This document shows, piece after piece, positions 1 through 23,277 of a DNA stretch of 64,000 nucleotides; position 1 is the first letter of the stretch, and each line of letters begins with the position of its first letter. The stretch lies in assembly GCA_017455185.1 (NCBI GenBank), contig JAFTBN010000062.1, forward strand, positions 867 through 64,866, written 5' to 3'. The notes beneath the pieces were generated by a model that was given only the letters and a program-made list of their open reading frames with translations, searched no databases and was not told the DNA's origin. Source of the stretch: Clostridia bacterium (GTDB taxonomy: Bacteria; Bacillota; Clostridia; Oscillospirales; CAG-272). The position numbers and the translations under genes were made by a program.

Positions 1-3000
1 TTTATGATGAAATATGTGCTTATAGTGCAACTGAAGCATCCAAGATTATGGATAATGGTCAGGGGATCATCTCTATAATAACCTCTGGGGCGCCGAAAAC
101 AGAGTCTACTGCTACCAACAGCCTTACATATGTGGCGAAAACAGCAAAAGGACAGACACTGACAAATGGCAACACAAGATATTACTATAATCTGAATGCA
201 GTAGATGATAGCGCTGGTGATTTGTCAACCGATCCCGCAAAGCTTATGCGTTGGGGGCTTAATCAGTATGCCTGCGCGAATATTAAAGATTATTTTCCCG
301 ATCCTTATAATGGAAATATAAGCGGAACAAACTTTTCTATGAAAAACTATAGTTGGTATCCGGTTAGTATCAATTCTGCAGTTTCAGTTTCCGGTACATT
401 TGAATTCTTCAACAATGAGTTTGAAAACTGTGAGGCATTAAAAACCAATACAAAACTTAGTTCTTTAGAAAGTACTCAGCATTATATGATGCAAAACGGA
501 TTGTTCTATGATGTTTCATCGAACGTTACGATTGGGCACATAGTTTTAAAGGGAAATATCGGAGCAGTAGGTGAATCGGGTACTGGTGCGCTCATATACG
601 GAAAAATCAGTGGTTCAGAAACAAATCCTGTAGTGATTTCAAGTGTAAAGGGAAGTATCTCTTTGGATGGGATTCATGTGCATAATTTTAGTACAAAGTC
701 TTCATCCTATGCTCCGCTTTTGATAAACTCTTCAACAGGGTATGTAACGCTTGATATCTATCATGTATCCAATACTAATAATTCGACTTATGCTGTTCCT
801 GCAGGAAAGGAAGTTGCAACTAGTTTAATAGGGAAATTGGGATCTGATTCAGCAAAGTTTTTGAATGTATCTTTTTCGGATATTAAACTTGATGGAAGAA
901 AGCAAACAGGAAGGTGTACTGGTAGTGGGGAAATTGGAAATGTAACCAGTAGTTCAAATACAAGTATTTATTATACAAGTAAATCCATTTTTTCAAGAGC
1001 AACACTTCTTGAATCTTTAATGTATGATTCTGATTCTTCTGGAGTATATAATTTTACATATAACGAAGATTGGGGTGCAGGAACGCCTAGAAAAGTAACT
1101 TATGGTAAAGAATTAGGTTATGTGAATGCTACTTCTGGAAGTACAAATGCAAATAATAATCAGTTCCCAGGGTTGGAATTGCAGTATTCTGGATCAGCCA
1201 ATTATGTTGCATATAAGCTAAAAGGTTCTAATCCTTATACATCTCAAAATAACACTATTTCTAATGAGTTTTTGAAGTATTTTCGCCCATATGTTGCTGA
1301 TGTGGATAAATCCCAAAAAAAGTTTCAGCTTTCGGTAAACCATAGAGCGATTACGCTTTCCGGTTGTGGTACTTATAATGATCCATATGTAATAGAGGAA
1401 GGTACACAGCTTGAAGGTGTATCCAGAATAATACGTGGTAATGCCAATAATGGTGATACGCTTAATTTACCGACCTCTGATGGTTCAACAGTTACTGTTG
1501 GAGCAACCTGGTGTCATGATAAAACTACTCCGGATCATGTTAGCTTTACATATAATGGTACTGATTTTGCATCTGCATCTGGGACGAGGAAGGAGGTTTT
1601 AGATGTTCAAAAGCATCTTGCCGGAGCGTACTATATTATTCAACCAAAGAATGATGCTTCCAGTATAACCGTGAGCAATAATACCGATTTTAACGGTCTT
1701 GGTTCAACCTCAGCTGAGACAATGTTTAGGGGTGTTATTGATGGCAATGATAAAACAATAATCAATCAAACAGACTATCCTCTTATTGCAACAAGTAACG
1801 GAAGCGTTGTAAAGGATTTGACTGTTACGATTGATAAAACCACCATAGCAAAAACAGGAAATCAGAGCACTTTTCCTACTGCCACTGCTTATGGCGCAAT
1901 CATCGGTCAAATACATGGTGGCGATAATATCATTGATAAGGTTACGGTAAACTTTGGGTCTTCTGTAATTAGTCTTAATGGAGATAAGGCTCAGCTTATT
2001 CCTACTGGCGGATATGTCGGTGTGGTTCTTAACGGTGGTTTGATATTTAGAAATATGAACTCCGTTGCAGCAACATCAAAACTTGCTGCTGCTAATGTTA
2101 CAACAAATCAAACAGCTATAGTTGTGACTGATATGACTGCTACCACAAGTACACATGAAACCACTAATGATCTTTGGCTTTATGTTAATCCTTATGTAGG
2201 AAGAGTTATCAACGGATATGCTGTAAATATTTCTTCAGCTTATCATGACAGGGACTCTGCTCAGATGCTTCAGAACGGAACAAAGCATTATTCTATCACG
2301 GATATTAATCCAAGTGAGGGCAATTTTACAGTATCCGGTTCTACAATTACTATTCCCAATGCACAGTCATTCTTTATTATATCTTTGATTGTAAACAGCG
2401 GAATGGGAATGAAGTCGACGGCTGATGCAACATCTGTAACCAGTCCTTTGGGATATTACAATGGTTATTGTACAACGAGGCACGCTCTGTATAATCAGAT
2501 AGGTGAAGCCACCAGTACCGACTACACTGATCTGGCTTCAAAGGATATATTTTGGCAGACTGCAACAGATTCTCAAAAGCAAGCTGATACACCTTATATT
2601 GTCGAAAACTATACTCCAGGTTCAGATTCTGATAACTATGTTGCCAAGACTCTGGGCGGTAGTAGCTCTGCTTGGTCGATAAACCTGAAATCAAGTGTGA
2701 CTTACAATCTTCCTGATGGTTATAAGGGCATTGGAAATATTTTCTACAATAATGTGGCCTTGAGATTAAATGTTGCCGGATTTGACGGAAAAGGCTGTAC
2801 TATTGATCAGAATACAAGATTTGTGAGTTATGATGATGGTTTTGATAATGCACAATATTTACCTGTTGCCGGAGATGGTGATACAAGTTATACTGCCCCA
2901 GATTTAGGATTAGGCTTGTTTAATCGCCAAGAAGGTAGAGACAATGTCGAAGTAACTTACAAGGATTTTATTCTTACTGGAAAAGTTAGAAGCGATGTGG

Positions 3001-6000
3001 TGGATAAAGGTACGGGAAATCATGTCTCGTATACATTTACTGATAAGAATAAGGGTATAGATAAATCATATGTTTTATCGACAGGCATGCTTTTTGGAAC
3101 TTTATATAGTAGAACTAAAATTCAAAATGTTACCCTAAGAAACATAGATGTTAGAGGTGCAAAATATTCTGGTGGTTTTATTGGTTCAGGACCAAATAGT
3201 AACGGTCGAAATATTACAATTGAACAGCAATCTTCTTATACAGAATCATCCTCAGGTATAGTGGTTCATGGAGTCACTGGTGCAGGAGGCATGATTGGTA
3301 GATGGCAGGCTGGTAATCCCAAAATCAGTTATAATAATCATATTTTCAATATTACTGAGATTTATAGTGATGCTGAGTCTGACATAGCAAATTTTAAATA
3401 TGGAGTAGGCGGAATTATTGGAGTTTGCCGTGCTGGTTTAGGAGATCCTGCTCCAGATGGAACAATAGAATACATAAAAGTTGGTGATCCAGAACAACTA
3501 ACGGCTTCTGTTGTTGGATGTAGTGTTCCCTCAAAAGGTATTAATGCTGGCGGTTTAATGGGAACATTAAATAGGTGTTCTCCTAAAATACAGCATTGCT
3601 CAGTTAATAATATTACGGTTATCTCTAATGGAGCAGATACATATGTTGGAGGATTAGTTGGTTTCACAACCACAAAGTGTCAGGTTCAAGTTGATGATAC
3701 TGTTATTTATTCAAACACAAATGCTAAGGCTGTTATTAAAGGAAATGGTTTTTGCGGTGGAGTTTTAGGAGTTTCCTCAAAGGATGATGGTACTCTTAAA
3801 TTTACAATATTGAATAGTACTCTTAGTGGTTATGCTATTAGCGGAAAAATTGTAGGGGGTATTGTTGGAAAAAGAGATACTGAACGAAAAAGCAATGTCC
3901 CATGGGATATGCGTATAGAAAACTTTGAAATCGATACTTGCTCTGTAACAGGCACAGGCACTGGAAATGTTGCAGGAGGGTTAGTAGGACAATTGCTTAC
4001 TCCTATCAAAGGCTATAATATCCACGCAAAGGATCTGACGGTAACTGGAGCAACTTCCGGTTATGTTGTCGGAACAATGGCTGATGATGATAAAGGCCTT
4101 ATCAAACTTGTTGCTTTTTCACGTCAGGAAACTCGTGATAATGAAACTATGCTTGCTACGATAGTCGGCTCCTATTTTACTTATGAGTACGGCGATGGAG
4201 GATATATTGTTTTTTCTGACTATTTGGGAACAAAAACTAATACTACTGTGTCTGCGATAAATGCTACCAACAATATAAATGATTTTAAATCACCTTATGT
4301 TAATATTAATCCTTCAGTAACATTTGAAGACTCTGTAGTTCTTACTGGTGACGGCGTAAGCACATTGACAAATGTGGCAGGAGGTAAAGCTTCAGCAGTA
4401 ATCAAGAAAATAAATGATGACGTACAAGATGATAAACCTAACTACATTAAAGCAATTGCTGGATATGATCCTACAGATACATCTAAATTCAAAGCAGATA
4501 TGCAGAAGCTGTATCATTCATACATTACCAGACAGTCCACTTTTGCAAATGAGGCAGAAGATAAACTAGAAGGAGTATCGGGGTATGATTTTCCTGTTCT
4601 GATACTTGATATTTCAAATGCAACACTGGCTAGAAATTATATAAACAACTATATACATCTATTGACAAATACTCCATCAAGTGGTGTATTCAGTAATTTT
4701 GCTAATGATTCAACTGGTGTATATCGTGTTGTTTTGACCAGGTATCAATATGATTCAACTGAAGGAGAACTTGTAGAGCAAACAACGGGATATGACAGCT
4801 TTATAAAAGAGGATGGAAAATTCTATATGGATGGTTCACATACTGATACAGAATGTGAAAATGCACAGTTCACACTTATGGACGTTCAGTTTTTTGATCC
4901 TTCTGATACAACTAAGGTTGCATACCATCTGTACATCCCAGTGTACTGTCGAAAGCTTTTGGAATACGATTTCAGAATCAATCTGGAGTCAGGAACGAAT
5001 TATGACCGCACAGCATCTGTATCAAGTATTCGACCGCTGAATGAAGAAAATGTGCTGATTGAGAATATTGGTACCCCTGTAACGATGGAGTTTGTTTATA
5101 CTTACAAACGTAATCTGCAGGAGTGGAAGAATGCATTAGAAGGTGGAGATTCTCTGATTGCTCCTTATTCTCCGCGTATGTTAAAATTTCAGAATAATAC
5201 ATCTACAGCTGCGGGCGTCACACCTAACAGCTTCCCGTCGGGAACTGCGATGGTATTAGTTGATGTAAATAGAAAAGGAAAAGCATATTATCTTAATTCT
5301 CTTACAAATACTGCTTTTTCTGCGCTGGATTCAAGCAAGAATTTTTATTTGAATTTGAATCAGTTTACAGCTACGGATGAAGCGGGGTTTGTTCCCGTTA
5401 CTTTCTGTGATTTGATGATTGTTACTGCGGAAGAAGATCCGGAAGGTAAATTTGTTTCTAAAACTCAAGCTGGAGGAACGGGTACTGTTAAAATAAATAG
5501 CGGTTCAACGGTTGTTGGACAGGAATTAAGACTGTATGATGATTCTACGGATGCAGGTAATGGATACACCAGGTATAATGTTAATCTGGCTTTTCCCGAG
5601 GGAGTTACTGAATTGTCGGAAAGATATTTCCTGACGATTTATACACCCGAGGATCAAAGTCAGAACAAGGTATATCATTATGTTATTGGATCGAAGGCGT
5701 CATTAAATGAAGCAAGCGGTCAATTCCCTACAAAAGTCACATCGGTTAATCAGATTTCCAATTTATACATTGGAGATATATATTCCAATCATGTGTATAT
5801 TGATGGTCTTTCTGATCCTCAAATGATTACGGAGGAAAGTAATAGTATTTCAGCGGATTTGCGGGCTACTATTGAATTGACTGGCGCAGGAAAAGACAAC
5901 GTAGGAGCGGTTCTGGACAAGGCAAGTTTGTATCAAAGTTTTTTGGTTAAACTGAATAAGTTTAATAATAATGCAACTCCTGCAAAGAGTGAAATCGGTA

Positions 6001-6980
6001 TTCTGGCTGAGAATATTCAGGTCTCTCCTTCGAACGGAAAAATAGGGTATGAAGGTGGCTTGGAGAATGCGACATTCACATGGAGTGGAAACTCAAACTA
6101 TATTGAAGTAAAATCCAACCAGAACCTGCGAGATTATTTAATTAGCAATACGGCAAAAAACAGGGCGACAGTGATTCAAATAAAGGTTACCATGACGTTT
6201 GACGGAAGTGAGGGAAGTACGGATATTCCAGACCAGTTCTATGGTCAACCTGAGGATAGCGAGCGAGGAACATTGGTTTATGCTTATTCAAATATTTCAT
6301 CGGTAAATGCGCAGACAGCGTACAGTAATGCTACCGCTAAGGATGAAACCAGTACTAAGATTTATTACACCTCAGAAGATCAAGGTGCTGCGTTGACTTA
6401 TGATGCAGTTACAGTTCCAGATCAAGGCGAACTGCAGCAATTAGGCATTAACAGACGGGATGCGAATGAACCATCTGTTTCATTGATAAAAACTCAAGGT
6501 AATTACGGAATAGCTAAATGTAAAACAGCAGCATCTGAATGTCAGTATGTAAAATGCAAGCTCACGCTTGCTCATAAACAAGATGATGCTACTTATACCA
6601 CAACCCCGCTTGTTTTATCGGATTATATATCCAGTATCAAGTTTGGTGATACCACAGTGACGCCAACAGCAGGAGAAACAGATTGTTATTTTGTCTTTGA
6701 TAAAGATGATTTAACCTTAGAAAATGATATCTATTGTATTCCAATTGATATAACGGTTATTTCTGGAGATGCTTTTGAGAACGGAACAGATACTGCCGGA
6801 AGTAAGAGAGTATACTCCAATTACAAAATCACATTGGAAGTATGTATGCAGGAAGATGATCTTGTCGCTTCAGAGGCAAAGCCTGGAACAACCGATTCGG
6901 ATTATTTGATTTATACACACGCAAAGATATATACGGATCGAATAACTCCGACAGAAGCCGGTGGTGGGGAAGAACCGTAA
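1..6980 (+). CDS. Giant repeat-containing putative surface/secreted protein (GLUG-like, beta-solenoid type modules); 5'-partial, continues upstream of the window
   Basis: The frame is open from base 3 to the TAA at 6978-6980 (bases 3-47 translate as YDEICAYSATEASKI with no stop). No Shine-Dalgarno precedes the first in-window ATG at 48. A 6.9-kb stop-free frame in AT-rich DNA is very unlikely by chance. Two modules begin with G(C/S)GTxxDPYxI and FxGxxDGxxxxI-type strings (aa ~450-570 and ~910). They are followed by repeated GG(F/I/L/M/V)(I/L/M/V)G strings (SGGFIGSG, AGGMIGR, VGGIIGV, AGGLMGT, VGGLVGF, CGGVLGV, VGGIVGK, AGGLVGQ), as in GLUG-motif proteins. The C-terminus has no LPXTG, TM segment, SLH or dockerin-like string. 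Confidence 0.85.
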   Translation, partial: YDEICAYSATEASKIMDNGQGIISIITSGAPKTESTATNSLTYVAKTAKGQTLTNGNTRYYYNLNAVDDSAGDLSTDPAKLMRWGLNQYACANIKDYFPDPYNGNISGTNFSMKNYSWYPVSINSAVSVSGTFEFFNNEFENCEALKTNTKLSSLESTQHYMMQNGLFYDVSSNVTIGHIVLKGNIGAVGESGTGALIYGKISGSETNPVVISSVKGSISLDGIHVHNFSTKSSSYAPLLINSSTGYVTLDIYHVSNTNNSTYAVPAGKEVATSLIGKLGSDSAKFLNVSFSDIKLDGRKQTGRCTGSGEIGNVTSSSNTSIYYTSKSIFSRATLLESLMYDSDSSGVYNFTYNEDWGAGTPRKVTYGKELGYVNATSGSTNANNNQFPGLELQYSGSANYVAYKLKGSNPYTSQNNTISNEFLKYFRPYVADVDKSQKKFQLSVNHRAITLSGCGTYNDPYVIEEGTQLEGVSRIIRGNANNGDTLNLPTSDGSTVTVGATWCHDKTTPDHVSFTYNGTDFASASGTRKEVLDVQKHLAGAYYIIQPKNDASSITVSNNTDFNGLGSTSAETMFRGVIDGNDKTIINQTDYPLIATSNGSVVKDLTVTIDKTTIAKTGNQSTFPTATAYGAIIGQIHGGDNIIDKVTVNFGSSVISLNGDKAQLIPTGGYVGVVLNGGLIFRNMNSVAATSKLAAANVTTNQTAIVVTDMTATTSTHETTNDLWLYVNPYVGRVINGYAVNISSAYHDRDSAQMLQNGTKHYSITDINPSEGNFTVSGSTITIPNAQSFFIISLIVNSGMGMKSTADATSVTSPLGYYNGYCTTRHALYNQIGEATSTDYTDLASKDIFWQTATDSQKQADTPYIVENYTPGSDSDNYVAKTLGGSSSAWSINLKSSVTYNLPDGYKGIGNIFYNNVALRLNVAGFDGKGCTIDQNTRFVSYDDGFDNAQYLPVAGDGDTSYTAPDLGLGLFNRQEGRDNVEVTYKDFILTGKVRSDVVDKGTGNHVSYTFTDKNKGIDKSYVLSTGMLFGTLYSRTKIQNVTLRNIDVRGAKYSGGFIGSGPNSNGRNITIEQQSSYTESSSGIVVHGVTGAGGMIGRWQAGNPKISYNNHIFNITEIYSDAESDIANFKYGVGGIIGVCRAGLGDPAPDGTIEYIKVGDPEQLTASVVGCSVPSKGINAGGLMGTLNRCSPKIQHCSVNNITVISNGADTYVGGLVGFTTTKCQVQVDDTVIYSNTNAKAVIKGNGFCGGVLGVSSKDDGTLKFTILNSTLSGYAISGKIVGGIVGKRDTERKSNVPWDMRIENFEIDTCSVTGTGTGNVAGGLVGQLLTPIKGYNIHAKDLTVTGATSGYVVGTMADDDKGLIKLVAFSRQETRDNETMLATIVGSYFTYEYGDGGYIVFSDYLGTKTNTTVSAINATNNINDFKSPYVNINPSVTFEDSVVLTGDGVSTLTNVAGGKASAVIKKINDDVQDDKPNYIKAIAGYDPTDTSKFKADMQKLYHSYITRQSTFANEAEDKLEGVSGYDFPVLILDISNATLARNYINNYIHLLTNTPSSGVFSNFANDSTGVYRVVLTRYQYDSTEGELVEQTTGYDSFIKEDGKFYMDGSHTDTECENAQFTLMDVQFFDPSDTTKVAYHLYIPVYCRKLLEYDFRINLESGTNYDRTASVSSIRPLNEENVLIENIGTPVTMEFVYTYKRNLQEWKNALEGGDSLIAPYSPRMLKFQNNTSTAAGVTPNSFPSGTAMVLVDVNRKGKAYYLNSLTNTAFSALDSSKNFYLNLNQFTATDEAGFVPVTFCDLMIVTAEEDPEGKFVSKTQAGGTGTVKINSGSTVVGQELRLYDDSTDAGNGYTRYNVNLAFPEGVTELSERYFLTIYTPEDQSQNKVYHYVIGSKASLNEASGQFPTKVTSVNQISNLYIGDIYSNHVYIDGLSDPQMITEESNSISADLRATIELTGAGKDNVGAVLDKASLYQSFLVKLNKFNNNATPAKSEIGILAENIQVSPSNGKIGYEGGLENATFTWSGNSNYIEVKSNQNLRDYLISNTAKNRATVIQIKVTMTFDGSEGSTDIPDQFYGQPEDSERGTLVYAYSNISSVNAQTAYSNATAKDETSTKIYYTSEDQGAALTYDAVTVPDQGELQQLGINRRDANEPSVSLIKTQGNYGIAKCKTAASECQYVKCKLTLAHKQDDATYTTTPLVLSDYISSIKFGDTTVTPTAGETDCYFVFDKDDLTLENDIYCIPIDITVISGDAFENGTDTAGSKRVYSNYKITLEVCMQEDDLVASEAKPGTTDSDYLIYTHAKIYTDRITPTEAGGGEEP

Positions 6981-7028
6981 ACACACCCTAGTTTGATCAC
7001 TAAAAAACAAAATCATTATTATCAACAA

Positions 7029-7091
7029 TAACACCCCAGGGGAAGAGAAGAATAATTTTTTCTTAGACCCACCGGGGTGTTATTTATTTTT
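7029..7091 (+). terminator. Hairpin plus T-run terminator downstream of the giant ORF
   Basis: TAACACCCC (7029-7037) pairs with GGGGTGTTA (7074-7082). There is a smaller inner AAGAA/TTCTT hairpin, and the structure is followed by TTTATTTTT. Confidence 0.6.
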
Positions 7092-7286
7092 AGCGGGGTG
7101 CTTTAGGGATGTGAAGTAAGCGTTAAATAATAAGGCGTCTAGCCAAGCAAGATAAAATAGAGTTGTAAACATGGAATGGTCTACAGCTCTATTTTTTTTG
7201 AGGGAAACCATATGCTTGAGGAGCTCGTGAAAAGCCGGTGCAAATAGTCTTTCAGACCGGACGGTAAAGACATAATTCCCGGACAT
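7080..7286 (-). other. Orphan 68-aa ORF of intermediate GC with no visible RBS; possibly a gene remnant (weak resemblance to the C-terminal end of IS4/IS5-type DDE transposases)
   Basis: The ORF is MSGNYVFTVRSERLFAPAFHELLKHMVSLKKNRAVDHSMFTTLFYLAWL... Its ERLF...K...(N)AV...LAWL spacing loosely recalls transposase C-termini. There is no SD upstream of the ATG. It sits exactly at the compositional junction. Confidence 0.2.
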
Positions 7287-7291
7287 ATTCG

Positions 7292-7368
7292 GTCACATAT
7301 CACGCGTAAATTCCCAAAGTAAATTCCACTGTGGAATTTACTTTGGGAATTTACTGTCACATATCACG
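7292..7368. repeat. 49-bp perfect palindrome flanked by 13-bp direct repeats
   Basis: GTCACATATCACG occurs at 7292-7304 and again at 7356-7368. Between the copies, GTAAATTCCCAAAGTAAATTCCAC (7306-7329) and its exact reverse complement (7331-7354) are separated by a single T. Each arm contains two copies of GTAAATTCC. Confidence 0.9.
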
Positions 7369-7391: not shown

Positions 7392-7420
7392 TTGACAAAA
7401 GCGGCCTGTTTTGCTAAAAT
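7392..7420 (+). promoter_or_regulatory. Sigma-70/SigA-type promoter upstream of fumC
   Basis: TTGACA (7392-7397), a 17-nt spacer, and TAAAAT (7415-7420) preceded by TGc. A second extended -10 (TGcTATAAT, -10 at 7537-7542) lies closer to fumC. Confidence 0.6.
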
Positions 7421-7569: not shown

Positions 7570-8985
7570 ATGGAATACAGAATCGAAAAGGATACGATGG
7601 GCGAGGTGAAAGTGCCTGCGGATTGCCTTTGGGGCGCACAGACGCAGAGAAGCCTTGAGCATTTCAGAATCGGGACCGAAAAGATCCCCGCGCCGGTTAT
7701 CCGGGCGTTCGCCTATCTGAAGAAAGCGGCCGCCATGGCAAACGCCGAACTGGTTCCGCAGAAAATGACCCCGCAGAAACGGGAACTGCTTGAAACCGTT
7801 TGCGATGAAATCCTGGAAGGGAAACTGGACGGCGCGTTTCCTTTGTCGGTCTGGCAGACCGGCAGCGGAACCCAATCCAACATGAATGTCAACGAGGTCA
7901 TCTCGCACCGTGCGGCCGCGCTGAATCCCGGACTGCCCCTGCACCCGAACGACGACGTGAATCTGTCGCAATCTTCGAACGATACATTTCCTTCCGCGAT
8001 GTACATAGCCGCGGTGACCGAAACACAGGGGCGCCTTATTCCTGCCCTGGATACTCTTCTTGCCACGCTGGACCGGCTGAGCCGGGAGAACGACGACGTG
8101 GTCAAAGGGGGAAGAACCCATCTGCAGGATGCGGTTCCGATCCGCTTTTCCCAGGAAGTTGCCGGATGGGCCGGACTGTTGCGGGTCGACCGGGAACAGA
8201 TTCTGTCCTCGCAAAAGGGATTGTACCGTCTGGCTCTGGGCGGGACGGCGGTCGGGACCGGTCTGAATGCCCCCGAGGGGTTTGCTGCCCTTGCCGCCCG
8301 GAAGGTGGCCGTGCTGACCGGATATCCGTTTGAGACGAACCCCAACAAATTCCAGGCTTTGACCGGCAAGAGTGAACTGGTCTTCGCTCATGGAGCTCTG
8401 AAGGGCCTGGCGGCGGATCTGATGAAAATCGCCAACGACGTCCGCTGGCTGGCTTCCGGACCGAGAAACGGTTTGGGTGAGATCCGGATTCCCGAAAACG
8501 AACCGGGTTCTTCCATTATGCCCGGCAAGGTGAACCCGACCCAATGCGAAGCGGTGACCATGGTTGCCGCCCAGGTTATGGGAAATGACGCGACCGTCGG
8601 ATTCGCGGCGTCACAGGGTAATTTTGAGCTGAACGTGTTCATGCCCGTCCTGATATACAATTACCTGCAGTCGGTCCGCCTTCTGACGGATGCGATGACG
8701 TCGTTTGAGGGCAACTGCATCCGGGGGATTGTTCCCGACCGGGAGCGGATGAAGGAAAACCTGAACCGGTCTTTGATGCTGGTGACCTGCCTCAATCCGT
8801 ACATCGGATATGAAAAGGCGGCCAAGGTGGCGAAAACGGCTTACGCGCAGCAGATTACGCTCAGGGAAGCCTGCCTGAAACTCGGATACCTGAGCGGGGA
8901 AGAGTTTGACCGGGTGTTCCGCCCGGAGGATATGACGGGCGGCGCACTGCCGGATTCCGATCAACCGTCAAAAGAGAAGAAATGA
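7570..8985 (+). CDS. fumC: Class II fumarate hydratase
   Basis: 471 aa. N-terminus [27 protein letters not shown]. The signature [16 protein letters not shown] is the fumarase variant, not the aspartase variant. Confidence 0.9.
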
Positions 8986-13784: not shown

Positions 13785-14546
13785 ATGGGAAACGATTCGA
13801 TTCAGGAGAACAGGAAGCGCACGCTGGATGAAGTGCGGCGGCGCAAGATGGAAGAGGAGAAGGCACGCCGGAAAAAGTACAACCGGATCATGCTGATTGT
13901 CAGCATCGTGATCATTGTCGCCGCACTTGCCGTTGTGCTGGTTTCCGTTCTGAGCAACGTGGATTTCTCCCCGAAAATGAAGGACATTGATTTTTCCCAG
14001 GTGGATCTGAGCAAATGCCAGGTCAGTCAGACCGAAACGGATTACGTCCTGATGACCATCAAGGACCACGGGCAGGTACTCATCCGCCTCTATCCCAAGG
14101 TCGCTCCGCTGACCGTGAAAAATTTCAAGGATCTTGTTTCCAAAGGATTCTACGACGGCCTGACCTTCCATCGGATTGTGGACGGATTTATGGCGCAGGG
14201 CGGGGATCCGCAAGGAAATGGTAACGGAGGTTCCGGCACTACCATCAAGGGAGAATTCAAGAGCAACGGTGTGAACAACAATCTGTCTCATGTGCGGGGC
14301 GTTGTGTCCATGGCCAGAGGAAGCAATTCCATGGATTCGGCTTCCAGCCAGTTCTTTATCTGCTACGATGACGTTTCTTCGACCCTGGACGGCAAATATG
14401 CCTCGTTCGGTTATGTCTGCGCCGGCATGGAGGTCATGGACGGTCTGCTGAAGGTGGAAAGAACAATGAACAGCCTGGGCGAGAGAGCAACGCCGGTTGA
14501 ACCCGTCATCATCGAAAGCATGCAGTTCGTCACCGTCAAGGGATAA
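13785..14546 (+). CDS. Membrane-anchored cyclophilin-type peptidyl-prolyl cis-trans isomerase
   Basis: A basic N-terminal segment and one TM helix (IMLIVSIVIIVAALAVVLVSVL) are followed by FHRIVDGFMAQGGDPQGNGNGGSG and SQFFICY. Confidence 0.85.
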   Translation: MGNDSIQENRKRTLDEVRRRKMEEEKARRKKYNRIMLIVSIVIIVAALAVVLVSVLSNVDFSPKMKDIDFSQVDLSKCQVSQTETDYVLMTIKDHGQVLIRLYPKVAPLTVKNFKDLVSKGFYDGLTFHRIVDGFMAQGGDPQGNGNGGSGTTIKGEFKSNGVNNNLSHVRGVVSMARGSNSMDSASSQFFICYDDVSSTLDGKYASFGYVCAGMEVMDGLLKVERTMNSLGERATPVEPVIIESMQFVTVKG

Positions 14547-14591
14547 CGGACCGACGGGTCGGCTGAGCGGCAGCTCATAAAAAGGAAAAAC

Positions 14592-14634
14592 AAAAAGACC
14601 GGGAAGTGTTGAGTAGGGCTTCCCGGCCTTTTTG
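14592..14634. terminator. Bidirectional rho-independent terminator between the convergent PPIase and rpsT genes
   Basis: CCGGGAAG (14599-14606) pairs with CTTCCCGG (14619-14626). An A-run lies on the left and a T-run (CCTTTTTG) on the right. Confidence 0.8.
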
Positions 14635-14665
14635 TCTGAACCGATATCGGTGTTATTGTCTTGAA

Positions 14666-14929
14666 TTAAGCCATTGCGTTTAACTTCTTCGTCAGCTGGC
14701 TCTTTTTGCGGGCGGCGGCGTTCTTGTGGATGATACCACGAACTGCGGCCTGATCCGCACGTTTGACGGCAGCGGTATATGTAACCTTCGCTGCTTCCTT
14801 GTCTCCGGCAGCAACAGCGGCATCGAACTTCTTGATTTCGTTCTTCAGCTTTGTGCGAAAGATCTTATTCTGGAGAGCTTTTGTCTCGGTCGTTTTGACA
14901 CGCTTTTTTGCAGATTTAATGTTCGGCAA
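14666..14929 (-). CDS. rpsT: 30S ribosomal protein S20
   Basis: (M)PNIKSAKKRVKTTETKALQNK... I prefer the TTG start at 14929, which lies downstream of the GAAAGGA Shine-Dalgarno. The track's ATG at 14941 overlaps that SD. Confidence 0.9.
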   Translation of the reverse strand: MPNIKSAKKRVKTTETKALQNKIFRTKLKNEIKKFDAAVAAGDKEAAKVTYTAAVKRADQAAVRGIIHKNAAARKKSQLTKKLNAMA

Positions 14930-15011
14930 GATACATACCATCCTTTCTGAAGAGTAGTTGTTGGAAGTTCAACGGGCTGAGAGGGCCCCACTGGTTTCAA
15001 CAAGCGTTCCT

Positions 15012-15040
15012 ATCATAGCACAACTCGCAAAAAAAAGCAA
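15012..15040 (-). promoter_or_regulatory. Promoter for rpsT
   Basis: Minus strand: TTGCTT (15040-15035), a 17-nt spacer, and TGcTATGAT (-10 at 15017-15012). Confidence 0.55.
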
Positions 15041-15078
15041 TATCTTTTTTAAAAGAAAAAATTTTTTTGAGAAATCGC

Positions 15079-15107
15079 TTGACAACCGGTTTCGGGGGTG
15101 ATACAAT
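15079..15107 (+). promoter_or_regulatory. Consensus promoter for rpoB-rpoC
   Basis: TTGACA (15079-15084), a 17-nt spacer, and TACAAT (15102-15107). It is followed by an AT-rich leader of about 160 nt. Confidence 0.7.
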
Positions 15108-15267
15108 GATAAACTGCATTATAATCGCTTTCTTTGCTCTTTTTTCAAAAAATGTGCAAAAAAAGTCCGTTTAAAAGTAAATTTTTGCGAACTGTTTTGA
15201 TAATTTTTTGTAAATTTTTGGAAGGGAAGCGCGTATCCGCAAATTTATAATTGGAGTGATTTAGCCA

Positions 15268-18200
15268 ATGTTAAACTTAATGGAGCGATTGAAGATTACG
15301 GAACAAACCGTAGGCCGTAACAAGAGGTACAGCTTTTCGAAGACCAGAAGTGCTGTCGATCTGCCGAATCTTGTTGAGATTCAGACCAAGTCCTATCAGT
15401 GGTTTCTGGACAAGGGCCTGAACGAGGTCCTCCGGGATGTTTCGCCGATTACCGATATCTCCAACAATCTGGTTATCGAGTTCCTGGGTTACAGCATCGG
15501 TCATGGTCCGAAGTATTCGATCGACGAATGCAAGGAACGCGATGAGAACTACACGATGACACTGAATATGATGGTCCGTCTGACCAATATGACGACGGGC
15601 GACATTCAGCACGACGAGGTCGTGATGTGCGAGTTCCCGAAGATGACCGAAACCGGAACATTCGTCGTGAACGGCGCAGAGCGCGTGATCGTTTCCCAGA
15701 TTATCCGTTCCCCCGGCATGTACTATGAGTCCGCCATCGACAACCGTACGGGTCAGCGCACCTATACCGCGACGGTCATTCCGTACCGCGGCGCATGGCT
15801 GGAGTATGAACTGGATGCCAACAACGTCCTGTGGGTCAAGATTGACAAGACCCGCAAAGTTCCCGCGACCGTGCTGGTCCGTGCCCTGGGCGTACCGGGC
15901 AAGGAGGACATCAAGGATCTGTTGGGCGGCGAGGCGATCCTGGACGCGACATTCGCCAGAGACGAGAGTGACGCCAACTCAATGAGTACGGGCGGACAGC
16001 TTTCGGTGACGGACGCGGCCCTGATTGAAATCTACCGCAAACTCCGTCCGGGTGAAATCGCTTCTCCCGAGGCGGCCCAGACCCTTCTGAACAACAACTT
16101 CTTTGACGCGCGCCGCTATGACATCGCGGCAGTCGGCCGTTACAAGTTCAACAAGAAGATGGCAATCGGAAGCCGGCTTGCAGGCTGCAAGCTGAGCCGT
16201 GACGTGATATCGGTCCTGAGCGGGGAAGTCCTGTTTGAGGCAGGTCACATCCTTTCCGCGAAGGATGCCGAACTGATCGAGCAGAACGGCGTGTACGAGG
16301 CGGAGGTCGAATCCGAGAGCGGCAAGCCCGTCAAGGTGCTTTCCAATCATACGCTGGAACCGGTTTATGTGTTCGGCTTTGATTTCTCCGAAATCGGACT
16401 GACCGAAAAGATGTGCCTGACCCCCATGCTCGACATCCGGGACGCTTGCGCGGATATCAGCGACCCCGAGGAGTACCGCGCGGCCGTGCTGAAGATGGCC
16501 CGGGAACGTGCGGCCGATCTTTCCCCCAAGCACATCACCATTGATGATATTTTCGCTTCCATTAACTATATGCTCGGCCTTCCTTACGGAATCGGCAACA
16601 TTGACAACATCGACCATCTGGGCAACCGCCGCATCCGTTCGGTCGGCGAACAGCTCCAGAACCAGGTCCGGATCGGCTTTGTCCGCATGGACAAGATGAT
16701 CAAGGAAAGAATGACCACTTCGGACAGCGAGGCGGTCACCATCCGTTCCCTGGTCAACACCCGTCCGATCAATGCGGCAATCAAGGAGTTCTTCGGATCC
16801 TCCCAGCTGTCGCAGTTCATGGACCAGAACAACCCTCTGGCCGAACTGACGCACAAGCGCCGTCTGTCCGCACTCGGCCCCGGCGGTCTGACCCGTGACC
16901 GTGCTTCGTTCGACGTGCGTGACGTTCACTATACGCATTACGGACGTATGTGCCCGATTGAGACGCCTGAAGGCCCGAACATCGGTCTGATTTCCTATCT
17001 GACCACGTACGCGCGCATCAGCGATTACGGCTTTATTGAAGCGCCGTACCGCAAGGTCGACAAAGAGACCGGCATCGTAACCGACGAAGTCGTCTATATG
17101 ACGGCTGACAAGGAAGACGCGTTCATCATCGCACAGGGCAACGAGCCTCTGGATGAGAACGGCCGGTTTGTCAACGCGAAGGTAACCGCACGCGACCGGG
17201 ATCAGTTCGTCGAAGTTCCGGCCGGCCGTGTGGATTATATGGACGTTTCCCCGAAGATGGTCGTGTCGGTTGCCGCCGCCATGATTCCGTTCCTGGAGAA
17301 CGACGACAACTCCCGTGCCCTGATGGGTGCGAACATGCAGAAGCAGGCCGTGCCGCTGATGATTACCGAGTCTCCGATTGTGGGAACCGGTATGGAATAT
17401 AAAGCGGCTGTGGACTCGGGCGTTGTGGTGTGCTCGGATGTGGACGGCATCGTGGACAGGGTCGAGGCAGACAAGATTGTCATCGAACTGGAGGACGGAC
17501 ACAAGAAAGTCTTCGAAATGCGCAAGTTCAAGCGGACCAACCAGGGTACCTGCTTCAACCAGAGACCGATTGTCCGCCGCGGCGACCGCGTCAAGGTCGG
17601 AGACGTCATTGCGGACGGACCGGCAACCTGCGACGGCGAAATCTCGCTGGGTAAGAACGCATTGATCGGCTTTATGACCTGGGAAGGTTATAACTACGAG
17701 GACGCGGTTCTTCTGAACGAAAGAATGGTGCGGGAGGACATCTATACCTCCTTGCACATTGAGGAATATACGCTTGAAGCGCGCGACACCAAACTGGGGC
17801 CGGAATCCATTACACGTGAAATTCCGAACACCAGCGAGGACGTGCTCAAGGACCTGAACGGCGAAGGCATCGTCAAGAAGGGAACCGAAGTCCGCGCGGG
17901 AGATATCCTGGTCGGTAAGGTCACCCCGAAGGGCGAAACCGAGCAGACGCCCGAAGAGCGGCTTTTGCATGCAATCTTCGGCGACAAGTCCAAGGACGTT
18001 CGCGACACATCCCTGAAGATGCCGCACGGCGAATCCGGCGTGGTGGTGGATACAAGGGTCTATACGCGTGAGAACGACCATCTGTCGACCGGCGTGGTCA
18101 AGAAGGTCTGCGTATACATCGCGCAGAAGCGCAAGATTTCCGTCGGAGACAAGATGGCGGGCCGCCACGGCAACAAGGGTGTCGTTTCGCGCATTCTGCC

Positions 18201-19233
18201 CCCCGAGGATATGCCGTTCCTGCCCGACGGAACACCGCTGGACATCGTGCTCAATCCTCTGGGCGTGCCTTCCCGTATGAACATCGGGCAGGTGCTTGAG
18301 GTCCATCTGGGCATTGCGGCCAAGAAACTGGGCTGGAAGATTATGACGCCTGTGTTCGACGGCGCAAACGAACGGGATATCAAGGAATGCATGAAAGCAG
18401 CCGGCATGTACCGCGACATCTTCCCGCTGGAGAATCCCGAAGGCAAGGAATTGTATGAAAAGGTCGTCAACGAGGAGACCGGCGAGGTCACATACAGGCA
18501 GCTGACCGATGAAGAGGCAGCCGACAAGGCTTACACTGAAAACCTGCGGCTGAAGAAGTGCCTCAAACTCGTAGACGGCAAGACCGTTCTGTACGACGGC
18601 CGTACCGGCGAGCCTTTCGACAACCCGGTCACCGTCGGTATCATGTATTATCTGAAACTGCACCATCTGGTTGACGATAAGATTCACGCCCGTTCCAACG
18701 GCCCGTACTCTTTGGTCACACAGCAGCCTTTGGGCGGTAAAGCGCAGTTCGGCGGCCAGCGTTTCGGTGAAATGGAAGTCTGGGCGCTTGAGGCGTACGG
18801 CGCGGCTTATACGCTGCAGGAAATCCTGACCATCAAGTCGGATGATATCAACGGCCGCCGCAAGACCTATGAAGCCATTATCAAGGGACAGAACATCATG
18901 AAGCCCGGCGTGCCGGAATCCTTCAAGGTGCTGGTCCGCGAACTTCAGGCCCTGGCTCTGGATGTGCGGATTCTGGACCAGAACGGCAATGAAATGTCTC
19001 TGGCACAGCTTTCGAATGAGGAAGAGTTCCCGAAACATGATAATACATTCGTTCCGAGCGAAGGACAGCAGCTGGACGATGAGGATCTGTACGGCGGGCT
19101 GATGGACGATCAGCTGTCTGACGCGGATCCGTCCGAATTGGAGAACAACGGTTACTCGGTATTGGACGAGAACGGTCAGTTCGAAGAAGAGGTTTACCAA
19201 GAGGAAGACAATCAGGATGAGGAGGAGTTTTAA
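15268..19233 (+). CDS. rpoB: DNA-directed RNA polymerase subunit beta
   Basis: 1321 aa. Unmistakable RpoB blocks are present: [70 protein letters not shown] and [20 protein letters not shown]. The exact start is uncertain (15268 or 15280). Confidence 0.97.
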
Positions 19234-19235
19234 CC

Positions 19236-22200
19236 ATGGAAAGTGAATTTACTTCAATAAAGATTGGGTTGGCATCTCCTGAAAGAATTAGAGAATGGTC
19301 CTATGGTGAAGTGACCAAACCGGAAACAATCAATTACCGTTCCCTCAAGCCGGAACCGGGTGGATTGTTCTGTGAAAAAATATTCGGGCCTACAAAAGAT
19401 TACACCTGCGCCTGCGGAAAGTCCAAGGCGATGCGGGGCGGAAAAATCGGCCAGCAGTGCCCGCACTGCGGCGTGGATCTGGTCCCGAAGAAAGTCCGCC
19501 GCGAGCGGATGGGACATGTGGAACTGGCCGCTCCGGTCAGCCACATCTGGTACATCAAAACCATCCCGAGCCGTATGGCTCTCGCTCTGGGCATCCCGCC
19601 CAAGCAGCTGGAACAGGTTCTGTATTTCGCTCAGAACGTAGTGCTCGACCCGGGCGCTGCCGAGGGAGAACTTTCGGAAGGGGAAGTCCTGTCCGAATCC
19701 CGTTACAAGGAAATGCAGGAGAAATACGGCGATTCCTTCCGCGTCGGCATGGGAGCCGAGGCCGTTCAGGAACTCCTTACGAGAAAGCAGGAGCACCTGG
19801 AAGAAATCGTAAGAGATCTGAAGGACGCATGCGCAAAGGTGAGCGGCCAGAAGAAGACGCAGCTGATCAAGCGTCTGGAAGTGCTGGAGGCCTTCCGCCG
19901 TTCGGGCAATCATCTGGAATGGATGATTCTGAACGTCGTTCCGGTTTTGCCTCCGGATATCCGCCCGATGGTTCAGCTGGACGGCGGACGTTTCGCTTCG
20001 TCCGACCTCAATGAACTTTACCGCCGCGTCATCAGCCGGAACGAGCGTCTGCGCCGTCTGATCAGCATGGACACTCCCGGCATCGTGATCCGCAACGAAA
20101 AGCGGATGCTCCAGGAAGCGGTTGATGCCCTGATCGACAACGGCAAGCGCGGAAAGCCGGTGACCGGCCCGAACAGCCGCGCGCTGAAATCCCTGTCCGA
20201 GATGCTTCGCGGTAAGCAGGGACGTTTCCGTCAGAACCTGTTGGGCAAGCGCGTGGACTATTCCGGACGTTCGGTTATCGTCGTCGGTCCTTCGCTTAAG
20301 ATTTATCAGTGCGGTCTGCCCAAGGAAATGGCGCTCGAACTGTTCAAGCCGTTTGTGGTGAAGCGCCTGGTGGAAATCGGGAAGGCAACCAACATCAAGG
20401 ACGCGCAGAAGAAAATCGACCGTGCGTATGCCATTGAGAACAACTGTGTATGGGATGCACTGGAAAACGTCATCACCGAGCACCCGGTTCTTCTGAACCG
20501 TGCTCCGACGCTTCACCGTCTGTCCATTCAGGCGTTTGAACCCGTCCTGGTGGAAGGCAGAGCCATCAAACTGCATCCGCTGGTCTGCACGGCGTTCAAC
20601 GCCGACTTCGACGGCGACCAGATGCCTGTTCACGTACCGCTGACAGCCGAGGCACAGGCGGAAGCCCGCTTCCTGATGCTGTCTGCCAAGAACCTGCTCA
20701 AGCCGATGGACGGGCATGCCGTGACCATCCCGACGCAGGATATGATTCTCGGTTCCTACTATCTGACTATGGAACGCGAGGGTGAGCCGGGTGAAGGCGG
20801 CTATTATCGCGACTTCAACGAGGCGATGATGGCCTATGCAAACGGCTATCTCGGCCTTCATGCGCCGATTCACGTGCGTGTGAAGGGAGAAGTAAACGGC
20901 AAGCAGATGCAGGCCACCATCAAGACCACGCTGGGCCGGATGATCTTCAACCGCCCGCTGCCTCAGAACCTGAAATTTGTGGACCGTTCGGTTCCAGGCG
21001 ACGAACTCAAACTCGAAGTCGACTTCGTCGTAACGAAGAAGGGCCTGGAGCAGATCATCAACCGCTGCATTTCCATCAACGGCACCAACGCCTGCGCGCT
21101 GATGCTGGATGAAATCAAGGCCATGGGCTATAAGTATTCCACGAAGGCTTCGTTCTCCATTTCGGTGTACGACATGACCATTCCGAAGGAGAAACCCGAA
21201 CTTCTGGCGGAAGCTCAGAAGAAAGTCGACAGCATTGGCCGTCACTACATGCGCGGCGAACTGTCCGAGGAAGAGCGCTACAAGAACGTCATCAAGGTCT
21301 GGGACAAGACGCAGGAAGACATTACCACGGCGCTGCACGGTTCGTTCAGTAACTTCAACCCGATCAAGATCATGGCAGACTCCGGTGCCCGCGGTTCCAT
21401 GCAGCAGCTCCGGCAACTGGCCGGTATGCGCGGTCTGATGTTCTCCACCGACGGTAAGACCATCGAACTTCCGATTAAATCCAACTTCCGTGAAGGTCTG
21501 AACATCACCGAGTACTTCATGGGTGCAAAGGGATCCCGTAAATCCCTGTCCGATACAGCGCTTCGTACCGCCGACTCGGGTTATCTGACCCGTCGTCTGG
21601 TTGACGTTTCGCAGGATGTCATCATCAGCGAAGAAAAGTGCGACACCAAGAAGGGCGCGTGGGTTTCGGCCATCATCGACGAGCGTGACAAGAACGTGCT
21701 CGAGCCGTTGTCCGACCGTATTATCGGCCGGTATACCATGGATCCGGTTGTCTCTCCCACCACGGGTGAAATCCTCGTACCCGAGGATACGATGATCACC
21801 GAGGAAGACGCTGAGAAGATCAAGGCGGCCGGAATTGAGCGCGTGCACATCCGCACGGTCATTCAGTGCAACAGCAAGCAGGGCATCTGCGCGCATTGCT
21901 ACGGCGCGGACCTGGCGACCAACAAGCCGGTCAGCATCGGCGAGGCAGTCGGCGTTATCGCCGCTCAGTCCATCGGTGAGCCGGGTACCCAGCTGACGAT
22001 GCGTACGTTCCACTCGGGCGGTGTCGCAGGTTCGGATATCACACAGGGTCTGCCCCGTGTCGAGGAATTGTTCGAGGCGCGTCAGCCCAAGAAGGAAGCC
22101 ATCATTGCCGAATGCGCCGGAACGGTGCACATCGACGTGTCGGATGATTCCAACATCAAGGAATTGCAGATTACGGACGATGTGTCCGGAGTCGTCAAGA

Positions 22201-23090
22201 AGAAGACGGTGCCGTTCAGTGCCCGCCTGATCGTGGAAGACGGTCAGCACGTGGAACTGGGTCAGGCTCTGACCGAAGGTTCCAAGTCGCCCAGCGCCAT
22301 TATGGCCATCCAGGGGCTGGATGCCGTATACGATTACCTGATCATGGAAATCCAGAAGGTGTATCGTGCCCAGTCCTGCCCGGTCAACGACAAGCACATT
22401 GAAATCATTGCCCGTCAGATGACCAAGAAAGTGGACGTGGAATCCGGCGGAGATTCCGATCTGCTGGATGGAACCAAGGTGGATTACCAGAAGTTCCGCG
22501 AGGCAGTGGATGAAATCGAAGCCCGCATCAAGGCCGGTACCGAAGCATACAACGCTTTGCTTGACCGGATGGATCACGGCGAAGAGGTCGACGCGGAAGA
22601 ACTGGCAAAGGCGAAGGCCGAGAGCGAACTGCAGCCGCCTAAGGCAAAAGCGGAACGCGCTCTGCTGGGTATCGCAAAGGCAGCCGTTCAGGCCGAATCC
22701 TTCCTGTCCGCCGCATCCTTCCAGGAGACCACCAAGGTCCTGACCGAGGCGGCTATCCAGGGCAAGGAAGACCATCTGTGCGGTCTGAAGGAGAATGTCA
22801 TCATCGGCAAACTGATTCCTGCCGGAACCGGTCTGCGCCGGTACAATGACATCGAAGTGGAGGAAGTGAACCCCACGTATGTCTCTACCGCCGAAAGCAT
22901 CATCGGACAGCTGCGCCCCGCAGAGGAGGATATCCTCGATGAGGCGGAATCCGAGGAAGAATTCGTTCCGGAAGAGGAAGTGGACGATCTTGTGACCGAA
23001 GAGGAATCCGAACCGATCGCCGACGAGTCGGCAAACGCCGAGGAAACGGACGACGGTGAGGAAACCGACAAGGACGGGGACGCCGAATAA
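19236..23090 (+). CDS. rpoC: DNA-directed RNA polymerase subunit beta'
   Basis: 1284 aa. Contains a Zn-finger CxCGK...CPHCGV, the NADFDGDQM catalytic loop, and trigger-loop/bridge-helix blocks. It starts 2 nt after the rpoB stop. Confidence 0.97.
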
Positions 23091-23129
23091 GGCGTCCGGC
23101 CCGTCCGGACAGAAAAGTTGGGAAATCTA

Positions 23130-23158
23130 TTGACTTTTCCGCATCTTGATGCTATACT
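23130..23158 (+). promoter_or_regulatory. Promoter for the str operon (rpsL-rpsG-fusA-tuf)
   Basis: TTGACT (23130-23135), a 17-nt spacer, and TGcTATACT (-10 at 23153-23158). Confidence 0.65.
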
Positions 23159-23277
23159 ACATAAGTTCAATTCTGCCTTTTTTAGAGCGGAATCCGATTG
23201 AGCGTTGGATAAGGAAAGGGGTTTTTCCGTTTCCTTTCAACATAAACATTAAATTTTGGAAGAAGGAGGAAGAGAAA

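Follow-up and report, generated by a model that had tools for sequence, protein, structure and literature searches.

SipW-dependent matrix fibres are encoded by the tapA-sipW-tasA operon of Bacillus subtilis and the sipW-bsaA-bsaB-bsaC operon of Clostridium perfringens, and donor-strand exchange has been described for them (PMC9245690; PMC9674648; bioRxiv 10.1101/2024.11.04.621531). These two operons are the nearest known systems to the locus reported here. It is found at the left end of a 64,000-nucleotide (nt) stretch of DNA from a Clostridia bacterium (contig JAFTBN010000062.1, positions 867 to 64,866; called the window in the following), where the 3' part of a giant AT-rich gene occupies positions 1 to 6980. 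In its relatives, the giant gene is the last member of a conserved cassette which also encodes three or four small secreted proteins, and a SipW-type signal peptidase gene is found close to the cassette in part of the loci. In our cautious judgement, the cassette is rather probably a horizontally acquired surface fibre or adhesin system, the adhesive function of which we infer from its architecture and its partner genes.

Reality and origin of the giant gene

The features of the giant gene and of its right border are the following (aa, amino acids of the fragment encoded in the window; dS, number of synonymous substitutions per site; Ig, immunoglobulin):

Upstream of the window: start codon of the giant gene, together with the Sec signal peptide and ~1,030 N-terminal residues of its product, as judged from full-length relatives
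3 to 6980, + strand: 3' 70% of the gene of the giant secreted protein, 2,325 codons plus stop; full length ~3,350 aa
3 to 4220, + strand: all-beta region, aa 1 to ~1405, which in the models consists of segments of right-handed parallel beta-helix interrupted by loops or domains
1362 to 1388, + strand: motif GCGTYNDPY, aa 454-462, conserved in the family and containing an Asp-Pro bond
2919 to 4010, + strand: recently recombined block, aa ~973-1336, recognized by sliding identity, codon differences and dS
3282 to 3989, + strand: six spaced [AV]GG[LIM][LIVM]G turns, aa 1094-1329, which resemble GLUG rungs of a beta-helix and have conserved G columns
4200 to 6977, + strand: C-terminal 926-aa family-specific module, an alpha/beta domain followed by tandem Ig-like domains
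7027 to 7095, + strand: hairpin 1 and T-run, likely terminator of the giant gene; inverted repeat 7027-7042 / 7069-7084 with 16-nt arms, 88% complementary
7570 to 8985, + strand: fumC, right flank of the island and first gene of host composition, outside the cassette

The frame of the giant gene is open from base 3 to the stop codon at 6978-6980 and has no start in the window. Since its full-length relatives measure ~3,350 aa, ~1,030 N-terminal residues lie outside, which agrees with the initial annotation, made from the sequence alone, that the gene begins upstream of the window. The gene is a real one, as had been presumed there. At the given base composition a stop codon is expected every ~14 codons, and the chance probability of an open frame of 2,325 codons is ~1e-76. 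A search of 5.8 billion proteins gave more than 3,480 relatives, of which the full-length ones are 3,200-3,950 aa long and none has a Pfam domain; the closest full-length ones, P0001 (3,358 aa) and P0002 (3,332 aa), are 83% and 79% identical to the window protein, respectively. The ratio of non-synonymous to synonymous substitutions (dN/dS) is 0.07-0.22 relative to the two closest alleles, with dS near saturation, and the giant protein is thus under purifying selection. Diversifying selection, which had been suspected from the similar nucleotide and amino acid identities, was ruled out by the same values. Among 1.84 billion representatives, the C-terminal 926 aa were found in 261 clusters at 50% identity, always as the C-terminus of proteins of 3,200-3,950 aa or of their fragments. 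The family of giant proteins is therefore closed and coherent.

The mean G+C content (GC) is 0.379 at positions 1-6980 and 0.563 at positions 7571-64000. The drop is sustained and real, but it amounts to 18 points and not to the 25-30 points which had been deduced from single lines of sequence, although the three hand counts behind that estimate (20, 20 and 39 G+C per 60 nt) proved exact on recount. GC at third codon positions (GC3) is 0.269 in the giant open reading frame (ORF) as opposed to a mean of 0.661 in the 28 other ORFs of the window (lowest 0.56), which is a gap of 39 points. The tetranucleotide usage of positions 1-7000 correlates with that of the remainder of the window at r = -0.17, whereas each other 7-kb chunk gave 0.86-0.97. 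The gene is accessory and compositionally foreign, and its codon usage is indeed unlike that of the other genes of the window. N, T, S and Y are clearly enriched in the protein and K and I just slightly; the initial annotation had described it as N/T/S/K/I-rich. The intergenic DNA 3' of the giant gene stays low in GC to ~7400, short of a promoter-like site of fumC at 7392-7420.

An assembly chimera was one of the options of the initial annotation. AT-rich DNA from a foreign source would then have been misjoined to a GC-rich contig near 7.0-7.4 kb, and the abrupt compositional switch speaks for this; that the contigs of the source family stop within the giant gene, which is evidently hard to assemble, could also be taken in favour of such a chimera. 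We consider it scarcely credible. The exact fumC protein of the window was found on 4 contigs with common neighbouring genes, and one contig (ENA ERZ28019131, 87.5 kb; L084) matches the window at 99.99% identity over 9 kb, the junction of the giant gene and fumC included. The junction is thus real and not an assembly artefact. Low-GC alleles next to high-GC flanks also occur in two further assemblies, L001/L008 (sheep-rumen metagenome-assembled genome (MAG) RGIG6843) and L002. Moreover, the giant gene closes with its own stop codon, hairpin and T-run (7027-7095) before the composition switches. The T-run reads TATTTATTTTT, and a simple terminator scan did not call this hairpin because its loop measures 26 nt.

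L084 begins inside the giant gene, just 866 nt of which it adds on the upstream side of the window, and this shows that assemblies break within this gene and not at the fumC junction. The source contig family was found to end ~785 codons into the gene. Co-existing mosaic alleles and the internal GGxxG repeats are probably the cause of these breaks. The giant gene thus interrupts metagenome assemblies, and full-length copies of the family are consequently expected to be under-represented in MAGs; its AT-rich composition could also lead binning tools to drop it. Among 185,579 representative genomes, the best match to the window protein is 79%.

The origin of the AT-richness was approached by recoding the giant protein with the codon usage of the other window genes, which gave a GC of 0.526 instead of the observed 0.379. 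Amino acid content thus accounts for ~4 of the 18 GC points and codon choice for the rest. The protein does not force AT-rich codons, as a 58% identical relative from an Oscillospiraceae MAG (L007) is encoded at GC3 0.685 in a background of 0.628. The nucleotide similarity to the two closest alleles (L001 and L002) ends exactly at the stop codon, and the three copies are followed by fumC in the window, YunG in L001 and unrelated sequence in L002. In more distant relatives the giant gene precedes rimP-nusA, a WYL gene or a dockerin gene. Recombinase, integrase or transposase/insertion sequence (IS) genes, serine recombinases among them, are located within 10 kb in ~11 of 72 loci, and a copy on the conjugative (MOBP, MPF_T) megaplasmid pRUMAL02 of Ruminococcus albus 7 lies amid recombinases, integrases and IS66 elements. 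By tblastn, two matching places were found on this megaplasmid (NC_014825.1), the first at 146704-156981 (WP_013483799.1).

The gene is also a mosaic. In the block of codons ~973-1336 (nt ~2919-4010), all but 9 of the 364 codons agree with the L001 allele (96-100% nucleotide identity), whereas the same block is only 59-69% identical to the L002 allele, which is otherwise the closer one. The dS value relative to L001 is 0.066 over aa 940-1340 and ranges from 0.7 to saturation across the rest of the giant gene. Such near-identity of a ~1.1-kb block to a sheep-rumen allele indicates a recent recombination event. The block and the GGxxG rungs coincide, and no other part of the gene diverges as strongly between the alleles.

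An old resident gene would require that its AT-richness be intrinsic, that is, due to its amino acids, to AT-biased mutation in a long and weakly codon-selected gene, or to selection for AT codons. This explanation, which we regard as unlikely, has the composition of the family on its side. In 46 of the 49 loci with enough flanking sequence, the giant gene has a GC3 below that of its non-cassette neighbours, and in 28 of them the difference exceeds 0.1, so the AT bias is partly a family trait. Across the loci, mean GC3 is 0.370 for the giant gene, 0.399 for the small cassette genes (A0, A, B and C), 0.517 for the linked peptidase module (both described below) and 0.501 for other genes; the small genes thus share the bias, whereas the module is host-like. 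The one-sidedness suggests either that the low-GC majority of Ruminococcus is the reservoir or that an AT bias is inherent in the family, and it thus fits a mutational or selective bias of the whole family as well as transfer. The enrichment of N, T, S and Y also costs its ~4 GC points. The recoding and the GC-rich relative speak against a resident gene, as do the three different downstream contexts of the closest alleles with their incongruent placement and the block with dS 0.066 in an allele that otherwise exceeds 0.7. Furthermore, the window is the extreme of the 49 loci with a GC3 gap of 0.40, as expected for an unameliorated import. An orthologue at the same locus with the same low GC in relatives, by which the initial annotation would have recognized an old resident gene, was found on neither count.

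Composition, allele context and recombination data together support acquisition and ongoing exchange, with the caveat of the family-wide bias, and recent acquisition is the better of the two possibilities offered initially. AT-rich islands with genes of giant surface proteins are of common occurrence. The cassette moves between genomes and its alleles recombine, and we propose that it is AT-rich in the present host of ~56% GC because it was recently imported from a low-GC Ruminococcus pool.

The upstream cassette and the linked peptidase module

For the analysis of gene context, 77 distinct loci were collected, 76 of them from one genome per species plus metagenome contigs, and the cassette was defined by clustering all of their ORFs. 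The hosts are rumen and gut Clostridia. Ruminococcus is represented by R. flavefaciens (ATCC 19208, Y1, YAD2003, YL228 and MA2007) and others, and there are further Oscillospiraceae, Hominimerdicola, and Lachnospiraceae such as Eubacterium xylanophilum, E. ruminantium and E. uniforme; some genomes carry two or three copies of the giant gene.

The initial annotation had recognized no partner gene. In the relatives, however, genes of small secreted proteins are conserved upstream, often together with SipW-type peptidases and a protein with an EAL domain. Genes A (~358 aa) and B (~274 aa), each present in 69 loci, and C (~352 aa), present in 70, lie co-oriented directly 5' of the giant gene, and a fourth gene, A0 (~351 aa), precedes A in 27 of the 77 loci. 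The order (A0)-A-B-C-giant is fixed, with the giant gene last, and the surrounding genes differ from locus to locus. Neither Pfam (E up to 1) nor NCBIfam gave a match to A0, A, B or C, and all five cassette genes of R. albus 7, with the products WP_013483795-99, are labelled 'hypothetical protein' in RefSeq. Extra genes of the A0 or A type were also observed 3' of the giant gene in some R. flavefaciens strains, at 17215-18429 and 22149-23435 in locus L035 and at 18728-19603 and 20024-21136 in L037. This suggests duplicated or alternative small subunits.

The N-termini of A0, A, B and C consist of a basic stretch and a hydrophobic core followed by a motif, which is STYAWFTM[NS][KR]EV in A0, TIAWF[TA]MN[KR] in A and PVYAWF..Q[RK]K in B; the signal end of C is weaker (YA.Y....N..KRVV). 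A0, A and B thus share the signal-anchor ending [ST]-x-[AY]-A-W-F, a TasA-like "YAWF". Homology of A0 and A in their first ~50 residues was shown by hhalign over 51 N-terminal columns (probability 97%, E 1e-11), and the relationship between the N-termini of A and B is weaker. The layout is that of the signal of TasA, which SipW cleaves; mature TasA in PDB 8aur starts at AFND, which places its cleavage at GGGTWA|AF. The signal ends of the partner proteins align in register with TasA GTWAAFN, although with E-values of 0.002-0.2 only. A relationship of the giant C-terminus to the small proteins as a pilin domain was also tried and was rejected, since the similarity found by hhalign was limited to the signal peptides.

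A second module, which is less tightly linked, recurs within 10 kb of the cassette in about a third of the loci. Its parts are the following:

EAL protein (100 bits)
239-aa protein
SipW/archaeal-type signal peptidase I
~525-aa protein
~990-aa S26 protein
~150-aa protein

Linkage to a sipW-type signal peptidase gene was thus observed in the loci of relatives. In 24 loci there are homologues of the peptidase within 10 kb, and frequently two of them; in most of these loci they lie downstream on the same strand. In L001, which is the closest relative with an upstream flank, the peptidase gene (2522-3286, minus strand) is upstream on the opposite strand; its product scored 93.8 bits with TIGR02228 (cutoff 51.85) and 121 bits with the SipW equivalog, under the cutoff of 190 of that model. 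The 57 kb of the window that follow the giant gene contain no member of the cassette or of the SipW/EAL module; if this genome has them, they are located upstream.

The ~990-aa protein of the module carries a C-terminal S26 signal-peptidase domain on a ~790-aa region without a recognized domain. This unusual, uncharacterized fusion was found in 17 loci, for instance at the following positions:

L028, 21361-24339
L015, 23686-26658
L001, 1-871, minus strand

Its neighbours are an ordinary SipW-type peptidase, the ~525-aa protein, which gives weak AAA-like matches, and the EAL protein.

Architecture and proposed function of the giant protein

An ordinary Sec signal opens the relatives of the giant protein, with a K/R-rich stretch followed by a hydrophobic core ending in ..VYA/AP. 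In P0001 this signal is the sole segment resembling a transmembrane helix, and there is none in the window protein. Searches of the 2,325-aa fragment with Pfam, NCBIfam, PADLOC, PHROG and PDB sequences gave nothing at E up to 1, and Pfam gave no match to the N-terminal 1,100 aa of P0002 at the same limit. The two halves of the fragment were modelled with AlphaFold from 22-sequence alignments, which limits the quality of the models.

In the model of the C-terminal half (aa 1166-2325, m36f770929370; predicted local distance difference test (pLDDT) 78.8), ~240 further residues of beta-rich rod are followed by a short alpha/beta domain (aa ~1465-1565) and by tandem beta-sandwiches (aa ~1575-2305). 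A Foldseek search against PDB gave 83 hits at E <= 0.001, led by the Ig-like domains of PrgB, an aggregation substance of enterococci (E 1.4e-13); further hits with E to 1e-5 were the legs of integrin alpha-chains, SspB C123, the Saf pilus, the basal pilins PilB and EbpB, SdrD and Sgo0707. The C-terminal ~750 aa are thus modelled as tandem Ig-like (CnaB/DEv-IgG-type) domains, and in this model the C-terminal architecture is the stalk type of Gram-positive adhesins and pilins. The C-terminus itself reads ...THAKIYTDRITPTEAGGGEEP, and no LPXT[GAN], NPXTG, LAXTG or SPXTG sorting motif is present in the giant protein. Dockerin, cohesin, S-layer homology (SLH) and other anchor domains, carbohydrate-binding modules (CBM) and carbohydrate-active enzymes (CAZymes) were not matched by Pfam or NCBIfam in the giant protein, and neither dockerin nor cohesin was matched in its partners.

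The lead of PrgB in the hit list raises the question of whether the giant protein is a PrgB-like mating or aggregation adhesin of a mobile element, so that the cassette would serve conjugation and not the ecology of the host. The copy on the conjugative megaplasmid of R. albus 7 and the serine recombinases, integrases or IS elements near ~11 of the 72 loci would fit this function. However, there are no transfer genes within 10 kb in most loci, the window locus included, and the recurrent neighbouring module contains a peptidase and an EAL protein and not a relaxase or a type IV secretion system. PrgB is LPXTG-anchored, which the giant protein is not, and Ig-like stalks are generic among adhesins. 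A role in mating therefore seems to us a poor prospect, slightly poorer than that of a resident gene.

The top ~30 PDB fold hits of the N-terminal half (aa 1-1165, m2b970c588ea1) are nearly all right-handed beta-helices, none of them significant; they include GH28, PL6, GH87, AlgE4, SRRP, PfbA, 'putative IgA1 protease' and Fap2. In the viral model library BFVD, one beta-helix was hit with E 4e-6, and 'putative IgA1 protease' was hit at probability 0.98. According to the relatives, a second set of [AV]GG[LIM][LIVM]G turns is present in the N-terminal part that is missing from the window. Pfam GLUG (PF07581) matched neither the 2,325-aa fragment nor the N-terminal 1,100 aa of P0002, and the resemblance lies in the GGxxG spacing only. 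In the motif GCGTYNDPY, 7-8 of the 9 positions are invariant in a 14-sequence alignment (G454, C455, G456, T457, Y458, D460, P461 and Y462), and G454, C455, G456, Y458 and P461 are still invariant in alignments of 22 and 53 sequences. Its Asp-Pro bond is reminiscent of FrpC-type modules with their autocatalytic 'clip-and-link' sites and of the GDPH sites in mucins.

A beta-helix of this kind might also belong to a giant polysaccharide-active enzyme (a lyase, hydrolase or epimerase of the pectate-lyase type) for the breakdown of plant cell walls. The top N-terminal fold hits GH28, PL6, GH87, AlgE4 and the pectate-lyase superfamily are in agreement with this, and so is the fact that the hosts are rumen fibre degraders. 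On the other hand, no PDB hit reaches significance (E >= 0.1), and the non-enzymatic adhesins SRRP, PfbA and Fap2 stand in the same list. Searches with Pfam and NCBIfam at E up to 1 gave no CAZyme, CBM or dockerin match, and no catalytic motif was identified. An enzyme is accordingly improbable. More improbable still is a polymorphic toxin, a contact-dependent inhibition protein or the remnant of a phage tail fibre, even though a beta-helix protein of this size, with mosaic alleles and horizontal mobility, would fit. The conserved, family-defining part is here the C-terminus and not a variable tip, the variable block is internal, and no small immunity-like gene is conserved downstream across the loci. 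There was no PADLOC or PHROG match and no tblastn match in 50,697 phage records, and the annotated flanks that were inspected showed no phage genes.

Within the favoured explanation, a surface fibre or adhesin system, the giant protein would be secreted by way of its Sec signal and would form a very long right-handed beta-helix with GLUG-like rungs, borne on a C-terminal Ig-like stalk. The small proteins would be processed by the dedicated SipW-type peptidase and then assemble into, or anchor, an extracellular fibre or layer which carries the giant protein as its exposed adhesive element. Plant fibre, other cells or a biofilm matrix may be the targets of adhesion, and the internal variable block may set the binding specificity. 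Production may be modulated by cyclic diguanylate (c-di-GMP) signalling, as the EAL protein is a putative c-di-GMP phosphodiesterase. A more elaborate version, which is possible but doubtful, is an undescribed Gram-positive appendage: SipW-type-cleaved subunits would polymerize via N-terminal strand exchange and display a 3,400-residue beta-helix protein with a GGxxG specificity block swapped between species, under c-di-GMP control, and the structural cassette, but not the processing machinery, would circulate as an AT-rich unit.

Several findings weigh against the proposed fibre or adhesin system, in addition to the family-wide AT bias. The model of the N-terminal half has a pLDDT of 68, and its best PDB hit, at E 0.1, is not significant. 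The giant protein lacks a recognizable wall anchor by which it would attach to the cell or fibre. Neither genes A-C nor the SipW module are visible in the window, the upstream side of which is missing, and the SipW module is absent from the 10-kb flanks in two thirds of the loci. The NCBIfam model of SipW-cognate signals did not match the small proteins. PF12389 (Peptidase_M73; TasA/CalY/camelysin) did not match A0, A, B or C at E up to 1, nor was it present in the 120 listed of 999 relatives of A0 (E <= 0.001). Comparison of the four proteins with a 30-member PF12389 alignment by hhalign gave probabilities of 0.5-12% in the signal region only, and the alignments with the TasA profile (E 0.018 and 0.0023, probability 3-12%) were restricted to the signal region as well and were not significant. 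No publication on any family member, nor any experiment, was found in the literature. Profiles of the partner families searched against PDB sequences gave chance hits only, and TasA was not found among them. Membership of the small proteins in the TasA family therefore failed by PF12389, by PDB-sequence profiles and by profile-profile comparison, and for this reason we propose that the system works like that of TasA and not that it is a member of it.

Further features of the window and comparison with known systems

Two more elements lie in the AT-rich spacer between the giant gene and fumC:

7154 to 7204, + strand: hairpin 2, an inverted repeat with 17-nt arms followed by T8, within the AT-rich tail of the island
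7306-7329 / 7331-7354, within 7285-7368: perfect 24-nt palindrome

The palindrome is flanked by the direct repeats GTCACATATCACG (in 7285-7304 and 7349-7368) and is located ahead of the promoter-like site of fumC, a sigma-70-like sequence at 7392-7420 with 11 of 12 matches. The segment 7285-7368 could be an operator, a small insertion resembling a miniature inverted-repeat transposable element with its target duplication, or the scar of the end of the island. The identity of fumC (GC 0.55-0.60) was established by Lyase_1 and FumaraseC_C on the identical protein of L084, and genes beyond the giant gene include, besides fumC, those of the malic enzyme, alaS and rpoB. The giant gene may not be the sole atypical segment of the window, since GC is 0.48-0.53 at positions 14001-16000 and 23001-30000 (window mean 0.56), with tetranucleotide correlations of 0.86-0.92. 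A flavin mononucleotide (FMN) riboswitch (RF00050, 104 bits) is located at 27739-27855 on the plus strand, directly 5' of ORF 27820-28830, the called start of which it overlaps; with a GC of 0.514, this ORF is among the lowest of the host genes.

R. flavefaciens, R. albus and their relatives need attachment to plant fibre for its degradation, and cellulosomes and type IV pili are the known attachment devices of Ruminococcus. The cassette is unannotated, widespread and mobile, and its five-gene architecture is conserved in the principal rumen fibre degraders; with regard to its probable function, it is a third candidate attachment device of rumen Ruminococcus. The giant gene is usually the largest of its neighbourhood, and all components are 'hypothetical' with no match to a domain family. 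If the cassette does encode an adhesive fibre, studies of rumen and gut colonization and of strain competition would gain a new target, and SipW-dependent matrix systems would extend beyond Bacillus and C. perfringens.

The giant protein resembles several groups of known surface proteins in part. Like Fap2 of Fusobacterium and the FhaB-type exoproteins of two-partner secretion (TPS), it exceeds 3,000 aa and is predicted to contain a long beta-helical rod, and Fap2 is in its list of fold hits; the hosts are Clostridia, however, the partner genes are entirely different, and an autotransporter barrel, a TPS domain and a TpsB partner are all absent. With SRRP of Limosilactobacillus reuteri, PfbA of Streptococcus pneumoniae and the GLUG 'IgA1-protease-like' proteins it shares the predicted right-handed beta-helix, the GGxxG rungs, secretion and an origin in gut organisms. 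Unlike these, it has no significant PDB fold hit, no Pfam GLUG match, no LPXTG motif and no serine-rich repeats, and it is 10 times longer than the solved domains. The tandem beta-sandwiches modelled for its C-terminal ~750 aa are similar to those of the sortase-anchored PrgB, SspB C123, SdrD, Sgo0707 and PilB/EbpB and of the chaperone-usher Saf pilus (Foldseek E 1e-13 to 1e-5). The identity to these proteins is only 6-11%, the giant protein has no sortase motif, and the cassette contains no sortase; the template-modelling scores are low because only individual domains superpose.

The closest parallels are nevertheless with the tasA and bsa operons. The mature parts of the small cassette proteins have no detectable homology to TasA or PF12389, and the cassette subunits are larger (250-400 aa). 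The peptidase module of the cassette is often unlinked or inverted and contains the ~990-aa S26 fusion and two unknown proteins, and the main product, a beta-helix protein of 3,300-3,900 aa, has no counterpart in either operon. On the other hand, in all three systems a gene of a SipW/archaeal-type signal peptidase I can be found beside those of several secreted, beta-rich proteins, and the signal anchors of the small proteins end in an aromatic-Ala-aromatic-Phe motif that aligns in register, although only weakly, with TasA TWA|AF. Several paralogous small subunits are combined with a larger accessory protein, and the EAL protein in the cassette loci points to a similar link with the biofilm lifestyle.

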